Source of the DNA: a virus
Length of the DNA stretch: 64,000 nucleotides
IMG/VR virus record: IMGVR_UViG_3300045988_145033
Location: 114,693 to 178,692 of that record
Reading direction: 5' to 3' (one strand)
The first letter of the stretch is position 1; the number at the start of each line of letters is the position of its first letter. The position numbers and the translations under genes are program-made. Under the pieces are notes generated by a model. That model saw only the letters and a program-made list of their open reading frames with translations, was not told where the DNA came from and ran no database searches. Positions 3,116 through 52,668 of the stretch are shown piece after piece.

Positions 3116-4948
3116 ATGGAAGATATAACTTTATATGGAAATGAAGTTCTACCAGAAGTAAGAGAATATATGTATGCTGAAGCTGAAATGACAGTATCGT
3201 ATAATTTAATACAAGATTATTTCTTCAATCTTATGGATAGCTTTAGAGATGAAACTATATACTATGGTGAAGCTGATGATGATGGTGAAGTTAAAACTGG
3301 ATTTTTTGCGAAGATAGGACAAATGTTTGTAAAGATGTGGAAAGCTATTATAAACTTTATTAAAACTGTATTTAGAAAAACTTGGGAAATACTTTCAAAA
3401 CCATTCAGTTTTAAAATGAATAGAGCTAATAACTCGTCTGGTGGCGGAGGTGGCGGTGGCTCATCAACACCTACTGAAAGAACTGCTGGTGGAGGCGGTG
3501 CTGAAGAAACTGCTAATAGAATAACTACTACAGATTTTAGACAATACCAAGAAATTGCAAACTTAAGAAGAAATCTAGTTTCATATCTTGGAAAAATGTC
3601 TACGGTAGAAAAGGATAAACTTTTAGCTACATTTGCTATAATGAAGGATGATAGTGTAAAAAATATAAGTCTTACTAAGATAGACAATAAAGGTACATAC
3701 GATACACACATAAAAAATATGGAAGCTATAAAGAAGAACTTGCTTGAAAACTTTAAACTTATATACGAATATGATGAGTTAAAGGATACAGATGCTATTA
3801 AAAACGTAGCAGCTACTCCAGCCATGAACCTTGTGTATAAGGAAGTACCAAAGCATTCTTTAATAAATGTAAAATATGAAAAGCCTAAAGAAGATGAAGA
3901 AGTAGTTAAAAAAGGAATAGCATCTCTATTCGGGATACAAATGATAGCTAAAAAGATTATAGAATGTACATCTAAAGTTACAGATACGACACAAACTGTT
4001 CAAAAGAAAAAGTCTGAAGCTAGTATAGCTAAAGATATTAAGAGTTTGATTAATACAATATTAGCGATAAATATGAGTGATACTGGAACTCACACTGGAC
4101 TTATAACGGATAAGGATAATGATATAAAGGTATTTGGAGACTATAATATAGTAGAGCTTTCTAAAGCTGTTAATGTTATATACGTATACTCATTTGGAGA
4201 AGATGCTTTAAAATTACTTAAAAAAGACCCTACAGGTATAATACAAGCTAAATTAAATTCAAATACAGTAATAAAGCCAGAAGCATATGAAACTAATAAA
4301 GGTATATTCTTAAAGAAAATGGTTAATGTCAATATAGCTGACAAGGTGTTAGAAACTGTTCAAATTAAAGCCGATGGAAATCAACCAGAATCTTTAACTT
4401 CTATTCTTAGTAAAGAATTTAAAGCAGCCGAAGGCAAAAAACCAGCAACAACATATGATGCACTAAGAGACCAGCTACTTAATGCTTTAGCGACATTTAA
4501 AGATTTAAGAGAGAATAATGAAAAGAAAGATAACGATGGTAAAACTGAATATGATAAAATAACAGATGAAAATGAAGCAGTTAAAGCGTCTGATATGTGG
4601 AAAGGTATAGTAACTAATGCTGCAAAGATAATTAAGAATGTAGCTAGTAGTGCACCAGAAATGGCAAGAACTATAACTAGAATAGATACAGCCATAGTTA
4701 TACATAAGCACTTATATAATACTATTCTTAGTGTATCGGTTACTGCTAACTTATGGGACGTATATTGTCATATGTATAAGGTAGCTAAAGACAACTTAGA
4801 GAATAATAAAGAGTTGATAAAGGATACAACAGGAAGCGATGACGCTACTAAAGAGCACAAACTAATAAAAGAAAAGTTAGCAGCATTAGATACAGAAGTT
4901 GCAGATTTAAAAGTTCAACTACAAAAAGAACTTAAAGGAAAACAATAA
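3116..4948 (+). CDS. paralog-family protein A: N-terminal MYAEAE/YYGEAD motifs, amphipathic/TM helix, G7 linker; putative virion internal/ejection protein
   Basis: ORF with AGGAGG RBS; shares architecture with 4984-6618, 6631-8073, 8179-9417; terminator 4957-4981. Confidence 0.6.
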   Translation: MEDITLYGNEVLPEVREYMYAEAEMTVSYNLIQDYFFNLMDSFRDETIYYGEADDDGEVKTGFFAKIGQMFVKMWKAIINFIKTVFRKTWEILSKPFSFKMNRANNSSGGGGGGGSSTPTERTAGGGGAEETANRITTTDFRQYQEIANLRRNLVSYLGKMSTVEKDKLLATFAIMKDDSVKNISLTKIDNKGTYDTHIKNMEAIKKNLLENFKLIYEYDELKDTDAIKNVAATPAMNLVYKEVPKHSLINVKYEKPKEDEEVVKKGIASLFGIQMIAKKIIECTSKVTDTTQTVQKKKSEASIAKDIKSLINTILAINMSDTGTHTGLITDKDNDIKVFGDYNIVELSKAVNVIYVYSFGEDALKLLKKDPTGIIQAKLNSNTVIKPEAYETNKGIFLKKMVNVNIADKVLETVQIKADGNQPESLTSILSKEFKAAEGKKPATTYDALRDQLLNALATFKDLRENNEKKDNDGKTEYDKITDENEAVKASDMWKGIVTNAAKIIKNVASSAPEMARTITRIDTAIVIHKHLYNTILSVSVTANLWDVYCHMYKVAKDNLENNKELIKDTTGSDDATKEHKLIKEKLAALDTEVADLKVQLQKELKGKQ

Positions 4949-40691: not shown

Positions 40692-41713
40692 GTTTTTTAC
40701 ATAATGTCGTTATCATCTTAGAAGGTAAGTATTCATATGAAACTCTAGCAGAAATGCCTATGAGTGAAATAGAAGCTCTACTTCAACATAATCAAGAATT
40801 TATAAGGATTAGAGATGAGATGATGGAGAAACAAAGACAGAAAGCAGAGCAAGAATCAAGAAACGGAAATAAAAAAGGTAGAACTACTAAAGAACCAATA
40901 TATTATTAAAATAAAAATATATGTGTGGGATATCCCACACATATATTTAGAAATACAAAATATTTCGGAGATAACTTTTATGAGAAGACAATATAAAGAA
41001 TATTATCGACTTACAAAAAGTTATTTAAGAAGATGTGGGACACCCAATGAATATTGATATTGACATTTCAACTCAAAGAAGTGTTCCTAATATTGTAATA
41101 AAAGATTTAGGTAGGCTTTCGCCTACCAATGTCATACATTATTAAATAACTTGTATAAAAGGACACCTAAATAATCTACATAAATTTAAGTACGAGTGAT
41201 ATAATATTCAAACCGAAAAGGATGAAATTATTTCAAATACGTGTTGTGCATATTTTAAGGTGGGCATATGCCCACCCGAGATGTGTCTTGTTAGTTGAAT
41301 TTGAACCAAATAGTTCAAGCTCTCTTCACAAGTGGTAGAATAGGACACCTAAGAGAACCTTGATAAAATCATTATCATGGCTATTAATAGCCATATAAAT
41401 GTTAAATTGAGGGGTGGAGCTCAAAGCTCCACACAATAGGACACCTAAGTCATTAATTAAATTTTATTAAGTTTTCTTCATGGGGTATCATACTTTGATA
41501 TCCAAAAAAGTAATTAAGAATCTTCTCACTTAAAGAGGATTCTGATTCTTAGAAGAGAAAGTAAAGAGAACTACCTCTATCGTAATTCTCTTTCCTTGTC
41601 TAAATGAATAAAGTGGGACACCCAAGGTATTATATGATTTCTACATGAGTAATAAGATAACAATTTTTCCAAATGTTTATGCTATCATTTATCTTGTTAG
41701 TCAATTTTAAAAA
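40692..41713. repeat. gene-free region with 5 direct copies of GGACACCYAA (41046, 41161, 41342, 41439, 41616) interleaved with perfect hairpins (40921-40942, 41110-41127, 41259-41276, 41412-41431)
   Basis: Direct reading; no ORF >60 aa. Confidence 0.7.
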
Positions 41714-42412
41714 TTACATAGTAACCATACATAGTCCATCTGAGCTATCAAGAGATACAATCTTACCGAATATCTCTTTTATCTCTTTATCATAATCTTC
41801 TACAGATTTATGCTTTTCGTATGTATTTATTATATTATCTAAATAATGAACTATTTGAGCTATTCTTTTAACCCAAGTTTCATCTTTAGCACTTTCTATG
41901 TGATGGTCAGGTTTACCGTCTTTCATTACTATCTTATATATAAGCTCATCAAATACAAAAGTATATACTTTAGCATTATTACCTTCAGGGTGTATAGATA
42001 AGCTATCAAGAACCATAACACTATCAGTTATTGCTTGTTCATTCTCTCTTTTACTCATATCAGTAATAAGTACATTCACATCAAATAACTCATATCCATT
42101 ATTTCTCAAATCATTATGAGCTTTATATCTTTCAAGTATAGTCTTATTAGCATCCCAAGTAATATCAGCTTTTTCTATATTATGATTACCTATTACTATT
42201 ATCTCATTCTCAGTTCTTATTCTAATAGTAATATCATTATTAAAAGGATGTCCGTTATATATCCCTATTTCAGTTTCTACACTCTTACCTTGCTTTCTAT
42301 AATGTGATGATACACCTTCTACTATATTTGATATAAATATACCTTTATCCTCTTTACTTAAATACTTAGTAGTACCTATTATATCAATATTTAAAACTAC
42401 CTTACATTTCAT
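41714..42412 (-). CDS. hypothetical protein (232 aa) downstream of GC-rich ncRNA candidate
   Basis: ORF with GGAGG RBS. Confidence 0.5.
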   Translation of the reverse strand: MKCKVVLNIDIIGTTKYLSKEDKGIFISNIVEGVSSHYRKQGKSVETEIGIYNGHPFNNDITIRIRTENEIIVIGNHNIEKADITWDANKTILERYKAHNDLRNNGYELFDVNVLITDMSKRENEQAITDSVMVLDSLSIHPEGNNAKVYTFVFDELIYKIVMKDGKPDHHIESAKDETWVKRIAQIVHYLDNIINTYEKHKSVEDYDKEIKEIFGKIVSLDSSDGLCMVTM

Positions 42413-42527
42413 ATTAATTATCCTCCTTTAAACTTAATTATACGAAAATGTTCATAAACTCTCAAGTTACAATACTTTTTATTTTTATTAAAAAACTTTT
42501 TTCAAAAAAGTGGAAACACTGTTGTGT

Positions 42528-42870
42528 AAAAAACAACCTTGACGTTGGTTGTTGTCCGAGCAGAGCGAGGAGCTGAAGCGTGAGCGGAACCCCAAACCAT
42601 CCCGACCGGTGCCCCTAAGGCAAGGAGTGGAGGGTGGTTAGGGGTTGCCGAGGAACGAGCAAGAACTAATGGCAACGGTGGGAATATCGACCAAGGCAAA
42701 AGAATAAATAAAAATATAATATAAATGTTACTAAATATACAGAAATAGTAATCCTAAATGGATTATTAATTAATATAAAAAATTATAAACAACATATTGC
42801 AGTAGCAAAAAAGAAACGGCTTCGCCTACTCCGCCTGCGGCGAGCCATACGATACTGGTTACAGTAGTAG
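42528..42870 (-). ncRNA. candidate structured non-coding RNA / cis-regulatory leader (GC-rich island) ending in intrinsic terminator
   Basis: GC-rich patches 42541-42700 and 42811-42860 with multiple complementary segments; on minus strand hairpin CAACC-AACGTCAA-GGTTG + TTTTTT at 42528-42551. Confidence 0.4.
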
Positions 42871-42994
42871 TAATACTATATGTAAATACTTATATAAACA
42901 AAATAAATGATATTATTTGAGATAAGTATGTCAAAAATGTAATAGTAATATTTCGTTTTTAATTCAGCCTTATTTAGAATTTTTCTTCTAAAAA

Positions 42995-43020
42995 TATATA
43001 CTCCCGATATGGGAGTATAT
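42995..43020 (-). terminator. terminator ATATACTCCC-GATAT-GGGAGTATAT
   Basis: Follows 43023-43547 stop. Confidence 0.55.
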
Positions 43021-43022
43021 AT

Positions 43023-43547
43023 TTACTTTTTATTATCATAAATTGTAGTAGTAGATAAAAGGTATCTTACTTTCTTTTCTACATAGGTTTCTAAATTCAT
43101 TCCTAAAGCATCTAATATATTAGATACAATAGTATGATACTTATCTGGTAGTATGTAATCAGCTTTAGTAAGTTTATAGTTATCTTGTCTTTTAAACTTA
43201 TAGTAAAACTTATATATTCTTGCAAATAAAGTATTATTAACTGAGTGCATTATATACCAAGTAATAATAGTAGTTACAAGTTCATATTGTGATATATAGA
43301 AATGGTCATCTTTCACTTCTCCATTTATTTGTATCCAATTATCCCTATAATTATTAATATCTTCTAAAGGATATTTATAATCGGAATTATCTTTATCATG
43401 TACTATTCTTATATCCAGTTTATTCCATAATGTAAAGTAATCATCAAAATGAATACTTCTTAAATAGTAAGCTATTCTATTAAACATAAATTCATTTTCA
43501 AATAATTGTGGATACATAAATGTGGGTACTTTATAACCTTCTTGCAT
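43023..43547 (-). CDS. hypothetical protein
   Basis: ORF with AGGAGG RBS; terminator 42995-43020 overlaps stop. Confidence 0.5.
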   Translation of the reverse strand: MQEGYKVPTFMYPQLFENEFMFNRIAYYLRSIHFDDYFTLWNKLDIRIVHDKDNSDYKYPLEDINNYRDNWIQINGEVKDDHFYISQYELVTTIITWYIMHSVNNTLFARIYKFYYKFKRQDNYKLTKADYILPDKYHTIVSNILDALGMNLETYVEKKVRYLLSTTTIYDNKK

Positions 43548-52658: not shown

Positions 52659-52668
52659 TTAGGTGTCC
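52659..52668 (-). repeat. inverted copy of GGACACCTAA motif in convergent intergenic region
   Basis: TTAGGTGTCC on plus strand. Confidence 0.6.

Follow-up and report, generated by a model that had tools for sequence, protein, structure and literature searches.

A GC-rich intergenic island of large Fusobacterium phages is a candidate structured non-coding RNA gene

The DNA analysed here, referred to as the window, is a 64-kb stretch of the genome of a phage of Fusobacterium nucleatum that belongs to the JD-Fnp1/4/6/7 group. Phages of this group have genomes of about 180 kb, and are 94–97% identical to the window over the locus described below. The segment 42514–42685, approximately 170 nt long, is the top GC outlier of the window, with a GC content of 0.65 versus 0.31. 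In a 100-nt scan of the 64 kb, the best value is 0.65, the window mean is 0.311 with a standard deviation of 0.047, and the runner-up peak reaches 0.52. This second peak, at 3392–3551, is located within a 610-aa open reading frame (ORF; 3116–4948) and is presumably coding. The GC content of positions 42500–42699 is 0.525, and that of their surroundings is about 0.27. The sequence features from which the initial annotation had described a GC-rich island in an AT-rich genome are all present where it placed them. The island lies within a 610-nt gap devoid of ORFs, which is bordered by two genes on the minus strand, encoding proteins of 232 aa and 174 aa (43023–43547). The two largest ORF-free stretches of the window flank the 232-aa gene, and the island lies in one of them, at the end adjoining that gene. 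The principal elements of the locus are the following:

41714–42412, minus strand: 232-aa gene, adjoining the island and divergent from the RNA if the latter is read from the plus strand
42426–42422, minus strand: strong ribosome-binding site GGAGG of the 232-aa gene, downstream of the island
42437–42465, minus strand: promoter-like site TTGAGA-17-TATAAT of the 232-aa gene, 11/12 matches, downstream of the island on the gene strand
42514–42685, plus strand (provisional, moderately favoured): core of the candidate structured non-coding RNA (ncRNA) in its type A form, delimited by P1, the closing helix, and distinguished by GC content, low variation and fold z-score
42686–42716, plus strand: A-rich tail 3' of the island, GCAAAAGAAUAAAUAAAAA; all types have a tail of this kind
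42818–42846, minus strand: second GC patch, predicted intrinsic terminator stem GGCUCGCC...GGCGAAGCC, then GUUUCUUUUUU (42817–42805), −14.9 kcal/mol

Homologues of the 232-aa protein are few. They form one clade with 87–97% identity and a second clade, which is encoded by contigs of 174–178 kb; the 232/234-aa proteins of the two clades are about 50% identical. An exhaustive HMM search confirms that the family is tiny, with three clusters at E ≤ 1e-10. A GC-rich island is present at the same syntenic spot in every locus with enough upstream DNA, in both clades. The islands belong to six sequence types:

Type A: the window, Fnp1/4/6/7, L027, L040 and L052
Type B: L026, L035–L039, L049 and L051
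Types C1–C4: the second phage clade

Types A and B are carried by phages with 232-aa proteins 96–97% identical to that of the window. The first 34 nt of the two types are common (AAACACTGTTGTGTAAAAAACAACCTTGACGTTG), and their interiors are unalignable. Type B has about 240 additional AT-rich nucleotides after the island. This insert (L035 ~100–560, L026 ~3480–3730) contains more conserved hairpins, for example CCTATTAGA...TCTAATAGG, and the tip of the hairpin AGTAAT..TCCC-TAT-GGGA..ATTACT differs between contigs. Types C1–C4 have a 5' half of about 95 nt in common, and differ in a domain of about 50 nt preceding a conserved 3' end. The loci show cassette-like exchange of the island between phages that are otherwise near-identical. 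Conservation within a lineage is tight, and sister lineages carry very different versions in its place. In locus L065, a gene distantly related to the 232-aa gene (250 aa, E = 1e-22) abuts its upstream gene, and neither a spacer nor a GC-rich island is present. The 100-nt GC content of this 3.9-kb contig (Logan SRR28381475) peaks at 0.40, and beyond the gene it has small Cys-rich ORFs in place of the array of motifs and hairpins that is described at the end of this text.

The initial annotation had treated 42528–42870 as a single element. However, the second GC patch is, as judged from its predicted stem and U-tract, a minus-strand intrinsic terminator separate from the island RNA, and the single element has to be divided. 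The pairing noted previously for this patch is confirmed, and on the plus strand it joins GGCTTCGCC (42818–42826) with GGCGAGCC (42839–42846). Clade 1 retains the patch, with indels that affect its loop or a bulge, and the clade-2 locus L030 lacks it. The U-tract was read straight from the sequence, and a simple scanner missed the terminator because of its 12-nt loop. The minus-strand transcripts that it would end come either out of the 174-aa gene or off a promoter-like site, TTGACA-16-TATCAT (42934→42907, minus strand), which has 11/12 matches and is conserved in clade 1. This site and the terminator (42846→42805) could mark the ends of another minus-strand RNA, about 95 nt long and located downstream of the 174-aa gene. 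A 14-bp hairpin at 42992–43024 (−18.6 kcal/mol, z = −6.3) coincides exactly with the stop codon of the 174-aa gene. It is flanked by A/T tracts and has the look of a bidirectional terminator; relatives retain the stem and vary in the loop. The AT-rich hairpin AGTAATCC-TAAAT-GGATTATT at 42747–42767 is conserved in types A and B, with a loop of opposite orientation in some relatives (CCTAAATGG, as against CCATTTAGG in L026 and L035). Between the island and the 232-aa gene is the A/T-tract block AAAAAACTTTTTTCAAAAAA (42484–42509), which has counterparts in all clade-2 types, for example AAAAAAATTTTTTAAAAA. The block may be a UP element or bent DNA common to divergent promoters.

The island is about six-fold less variable than its flanks among close relatives. 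In an alignment of five type-A phages, 5 of its 173 columns are variable (2.9%), compared with 12–22% in the adjoining AT-rich spacers. Two of the differences between relatives are 1-nt indels. As stated in the initial annotation, the sole ORF across the island is a 65-aa frame on the minus strand (42502–42699), which is disrupted in relatives by 1-nt indels. The island is rich in purines and poor in stop codons, and its open frames are not retained across variants or types, which rules out that it encodes a small peptide. The indels, the lack of conserved frames and the low variation together indicate that the island is non-coding and under purifying selection. In combination with its structure, these properties make it a good candidate for an ncRNA gene and support the earlier proposal. 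As far as the alignments indicate, the island has the generic properties of a structured ncRNA: it is non-coding, under purifying selection, and has compensatory substitutions in its helices.

The island does not belong to a known RNA family. The covariance search against Rfam 15 that had been suggested previously gave no hit above the gathering threshold in the whole window, none for the island at E ≤ 10, and none for the islands of types B and C at E ≤ 5. The island thus matches none of the 4227 Rfam 15 families, including pRNA, 6S, tmRNA, RNase P, group I/II introns, ribozymes, and GOLLD/ROOL/HEARO. ARAGORN identified no tRNA or tmRNA genes in the window. At E ≤ 10, blastn of the island against 50,697 phage records retrieved the four JD-Fnp phages alone, plus chance 30-mers, and against 72,556 plasmid records nothing real. 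A scan of IMG/VR with a 17-mer yielded 21 hits, one of which is a true homologue. The invariant 21-mer of clade 2 is absent from 185,579 bacterial species genomes, save for one chance hit in an Acidobacteriaceae MAG. Capture of a host RNA fragment is therefore not supported. These genomes were also scanned for the neighbouring gene, anchored on its protein, and yielded no match. The island is single-copy, and a covariance model of the clade-2 5' half found no extra copies. A miniature transposable element (MITE) with P1 as its terminal inverted repeats was rejected, as the island is single-copy and the P1 arms differ by transitions that preserve G-U pairing. A retron ncRNA (msr-msd) was also considered, and there is no reverse transcriptase family in Pfam among five neighbouring proteins.

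The 232-aa protein has a generic α/β fold and does not resemble ToxN/AbiQ/CptN-type endoribonucleases in sequence or fold. Scans of the neighbouring proteins with Pfam, PHROG and PADLOC yielded nothing usable, a PDB sequence search was empty, and the AF2 model of the 174-aa protein (pLDDT 49) is too poor for use. Tandem Repeats Finder detected just two AT-rich micro-arrays, both outside the island; there are no direct-repeat families in 42500–42720, and no iterons or direct repeats inside the island. Type III antitoxin RNAs are composed of tandem direct repeats of about 34–36 nt upstream of the toxin gene. The locus resembles the type III systems ToxI, CptI and TenpI in that a phage non-coding RNA locus adjoins a gene, with a weak hairpin and a T-run between them on the gene strand. 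It differs from them in the lack of tandem repeats, in a protein unlike ToxN/AbiQ, in the probable transcription of the RNA from the opposite strand, and in the presence of the gene without the RNA in L065. The ToxIN-like layout considered in the initial annotation is therefore not upheld. The interpretation of the island as a leader, attenuator or riboswitch of the 232-aa gene fails as well. The island shares with riboswitch leaders a structured GC-rich element upstream of a gene. However, its sequence is not conserved, as the island type changes while the downstream protein remains 96–97% identical, and the RNA is probably encoded on the opposite strand. A promoter-like site of the gene, the −35 hexamer of which is not conserved in relatives, separates the two, the L065 gene is island-free, and there is no Rfam match. 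A riboswitch or cis-regulatory leader would be expected to keep one ligand- or factor-binding fold in the 5' UTR of its gene in all relatives, which is not the case here.

Within its closing helix, the island folds with a z-score of −4.6 on the plus strand and −2.7 on the minus strand; the clade-2 types have weak z-scores of −0.9 to −1.9. The predicted helices of the type A RNA are:

42517–42525, plus strand: P1 5' strand, CACUGUUGU, for which GCAACGGUG gives the best duplex in the 195 nt that follow; 1 of 500 shuffles as good
42521–42537, plus strand: H1, alternative 5' hairpin GUUGU-GUAAAAA-ACAAC, overlapping Pa
42532–42553, plus strand: hairpin Pa, AACAACC-UUGACGUU-GGUUGUU, −7.7 kcal/mol, nested in P1; corresponds to the minus-strand 'terminator' of the initial annotation
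42555–42571, plus strand: hairpin Pb, UCC-[GA]-GC-AGA-GC-[GA]-GGA, a stem with a tandem G-A interruption
42572–42660, plus strand: long hairpin Pc, 89 nt, −40.7 kcal/mol, z = −3.6, 0 of 200 shuffles as good
42672–42680, plus strand: P1 3' strand, GCAACGGUG, at the 3' edge of the island; 9 bp including two U-G pairs

In all types, the conserved 5' AAACACU pairs with the 3' edge of the GC-rich block to form P1, with differences in sequence and register. The pairings are CACUGUUGU/GCAACGGUG in type A, AAAACACUG/CAGUGUUUU in type B, and AAACACUUCG/CGAAGUG(C)UUU in type C. When the 5' 12-mer is compared with the following 195 nt, its best duplex falls at the 3' edge of the island in each type, a result equalled by 1–13 of 500 dinucleotide shuffles. 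In folds of the isolated island, four of five types, type A among them, have P1 in the minimum free energy structure. Pa is conserved in types A and B and is absent from clade 2. The 5' hairpin is formed by GUUGU/ACAAC in types A and B, UCGUG/CACGA in C1, C3 and C4, and UCGUU/AACGA in C2. The H1 of clade 2 covaries between UCGUG-UAA-CACGA and UCGUU-UAAC-AACGA, in which G-C alternates with U-A. The Pb module recurs as P2 of clade 2, three pairs of which have compensatory double changes. The tandem G-A hairpin has the sequence GUUCG-GA-GUUC-GAA-GAAC-GA-CGAA(A)C in C1 and GCUUC-GA-GUUC-GUGA-GAAC-GA-GAAG(A)C in C2, and clade 2 contains a second G-A hairpin with a GGAA loop. P4 of clade 2 is GCAC-AGUG-GUGC, GCAC-CUA-GUGC or GCC-GAAA-GGC, and U-G alternates with C-G. 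The variable stem P5 of clade 2 is formed by CGGAUUU/AAAUCCG in C2, and by CCGAAAUU/AAUUUCGG with the cap GCC-GAAA-GGC in C4. The complementary segments of the island pointed out in the initial annotation, CCCCAAACCATCCC (42590–42603) and GGGTGGTTAGGGG (42632–42644), pair inside Pc, the tip of which is the hairpin UGCC-CCUAA-GGCA (42610–42622). In Fnp6, an A-to-U change converts an A-A mismatch of Pc to a U-A pair, and the changes in Fnp4 are in loops. Besides P1, Pa, Pb and Pc, type A contains an 11-nt joiner.

The helices were compared in a hand-aligned table, in which several are seen to be maintained by what appear to be compensatory changes. In the clade-2 alignment, 99.3% of the cells are paired, compared with 23–52% when the partners are slid. 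There are only six truly distinct sequences, and the covariation consequently derives from few events. The types have a predicted layout in common, in which the closing helix and the 5' hairpin are accompanied by hairpins that contain tandem G-A pairs and GNRA loops. The covariance model of the clade-2 5' half neither recognises nor aligns types A or B; the likeness between the clades is therefore supported for the architecture, and not for homology of the interiors.

We propose that 42514–42685 encodes a small, stably folded ncRNA of an undescribed family, most likely on the plus strand and divergent from the 232-aa gene, and consider the chance that this is correct to be about even. The RNA would form a multi-helix junction shut by the terminal helix P1. 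This helix would enclose the 5' hairpin, a long variable hairpin, and one or two short ones that are interrupted by tandem G-A pairs. GNRA loops, G-A motifs and high GC content are typical of shape-forming or protein-binding RNAs, and not of base-pairing sRNAs. The presence of these features in an AT-rich phage genome suggests a folded RNA that acts in trans, as does the lack of a cis target downstream on the plus strand. We speculate that the RNA binds protein, serving as a scaffold or decoy, and is neither a cis leader nor an antisense RNA that acts by base pairing. The combination of a conserved scaffold with a hypervariable stem suggests a diversifying partner, and the variable domain may have diversified through phage–host or phage–phage conflict.

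Transcription of the island from the plus strand, opposite to the flanking genes, is moderately favoured by the comparative evidence. Four G-U pairs of the comparative helices on the plus strand become A-C mismatches on the minus strand, and the hand-aligned table contains no reverse case. The two U-G pairs of P1 in type A would likewise be A-C mismatches. GNRA tetraloops (GUGA, GGAA, GAAA twice, and GAGA), which cap several independent hairpins, occur on the plus strand only and would be UCAC, UUCC or UUUC on the minus strand. The tandem G-A internal loops conserved in P2, P3 and Pb would become tandem U-C. The plus strand is 57–66% purine, with unpaired regions rich in A and G, whereas a minus-strand RNA would be 57–66% pyrimidine. 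The RNAalifold consensus has an energy of −34.2 kcal/mol on the plus strand versus −29.5 kcal/mol on the minus strand, and the fold z-score of type A is likewise better on the plus strand. The alternative, which we find possible but doubtful, is that the RNA is transcribed from the minus strand as a C/U-rich sRNA or a long structured leader, with its end at a weak intrinsic terminator situated some 115 nt ahead of the 232-aa gene. In both clades, a small hairpin followed by a U-rich tract is indeed present on the minus strand at the gene-proximal end of the island. It is AACAACC-AACGUCAA-GGUUGUU (−7.7 kcal/mol) followed by U6 in the window, and TCGTG-TTA-CACGA followed by AGTGTTTTGT in clade 2. 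The P1 of clade 2 has 11 continuous pairs including G-U on the minus strand, and an A-C mismatch or bulge at that place on the plus strand. The type-B variant L049/L051 contains a U-to-C change that breaks a predicted plus-strand pair and corresponds to a G-U pair on the minus strand. Hairpins at 41110–41434 have GAAA/UUCG loops on the minus strand, hence minus-strand transcription of the neighbourhood is probable. However, the strong minus-strand terminator at 42846–42805 lies upstream, with no clear promoter between it and the island, and the hairpin at 42532–42553 is not conserved in clade 2. A minus-strand leader would also have to be reconciled with the promoter-like site of the 232-aa gene itself and with the L065 gene that has no island, and a riboswitch with an aptamer-like part that is not conserved. 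The initial annotation had read the island from the minus strand and placed a terminator at 42528–42551. The hairpin AACAACC-TTGACGTT-GGTTGTT (42532–42553) next to T6 does exist, but when the RNA is read from the plus strand, the T6 is an A6 preceding the hairpin, and the hairpin is the internal Pa inside P1. Scans for promoters and terminators favour neither strand clearly. On the plus strand, they found no convincing sigma-70 promoter upstream of the island in types A and B, and no intrinsic terminator after it. Polymorphisms within the types are too few to decide the strand.

It is improbable that the island functions as DNA, either as a replication origin using an R-loop of a G-rich transcript or as protein-binding inverted repeats, and that the RNA fold is incidental. 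Such a function would agree with the location in one of the two largest ORF-free stretches, the very AT-rich flanks with A/T tracts, the positive GC skew over the island, and the repeats of GGACACCYAA in the neighbouring gap. However, the helices tolerate G-U pairs and bulges, contain conserved tandem G-A mismatches, carry GNRA loops, and include one that joins sites 150 nt apart, which points to constraints at the RNA level. Furthermore, the island contains no iterons or direct repeats, and the cumulative GC skew has no origin-like turning point beyond the effect of gene orientation. We regard as highly improbable that the island is a non-functional remnant, such as a decayed gene, the scar of a mobile element, or foreign GC-rich DNA that the phage captured. 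Its composition is foreign to the phage, it is present in some relatives and absent from others, and types A and B replace each other in the manner of cassettes, as might be expected of a remnant. Nevertheless, it varies six-fold less than its flanks, retains its layout with compensatory changes across six types, resembles no other DNA in phages, plasmids or bacterial genomes, and is single-copy with no conserved reading frame.

To our knowledge, very few functional structured RNAs from phages have been described, and none from phages of F. nucleatum. The phi29-type pRNA is a phage RNA of 120–174 nt, the 5' and 3' ends of which pair as a closing helix, and its sequence diverges fast while its structure is kept. 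The likeness of the island to pRNA is an analogy of evolutionary pattern only: there is no Rfam pRNA hit, the host genome is that of a 180-kb phage and not of a 20-kb phi29-like podovirus, and nothing ties the island to packaging. AT-rich genomes of bacteria and phages have yielded orphan structured ncRNA motifs in the form of GC-rich islands between genes, for example the candidates in Weinberg et al. 2017 (PMC5737381). The island is similar to these motifs in being GC-rich, intergenic, conserved and non-coding on an AT-rich background, with covarying helices. It differs from them in its occurrence at one syntenic locus in two clades of 175–180 kb Fusobacterium phages, and in its strongly divergent replacements between close relatives. 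Based on the sequence comparisons, it is a credible structured-RNA candidate restricted to these two clades.

We tentatively suggest, as a proposal more likely to be wrong than right, that the island represents a new class of phage RNAs. These would be composed of a conserved 5' scaffold, formed by P1, the 5' hairpin and the tandem-G-A hairpins, and an exchangeable hypervariable 3' stem that serves as a lineage-specific determinant. The cassettes would recombine among co-circulating oral Fusobacterium phages. An RNA of this kind might be the partner or decoy of a conflict protein, or the specificity element of a phage ribonucleoprotein. A folded RNA that is conserved and yet swapped as a cassette marks a locus under unusual selection. 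If the variable domain is a specificity determinant, the RNA would add an RNA-based layer to phage–host or phage–phage conflict. About 148 of the 178 genes in the 180-kb phages of this group have no known function. F. nucleatum, an oral bacterium associated with tumours, is being explored as a target of phage therapy (PMC9670143).

On the far side of the 232-aa gene, a 1-kb ORF-poor gap (40900–41700) contains five exact plus-strand copies of the motif GGACACCYAA, at 41038, 41161, 41343, 41439 and 41616. A sixth copy is located at 52659–52668 on the minus strand. With up to one mismatch allowed, there are 8 hits compared with 3.0 ± 1.7 expected. The copies are interleaved with GC-rich hairpins, the stems of which covary in relatives (GGTAGGC/GCCTACC versus GGCAGGG/CCCCTGC) and the loops of which are GAAA or UUCG on the minus strand. 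The 5' sequence AAAGTGGAAACAC of the island resembles AAAGTGGGACACCCAA, and a clade-2 phage has motifs analogous to GGACACCYAA, GACACnCACAtAA. The repeats could be promoters, processing sites or protein-binding repeats.
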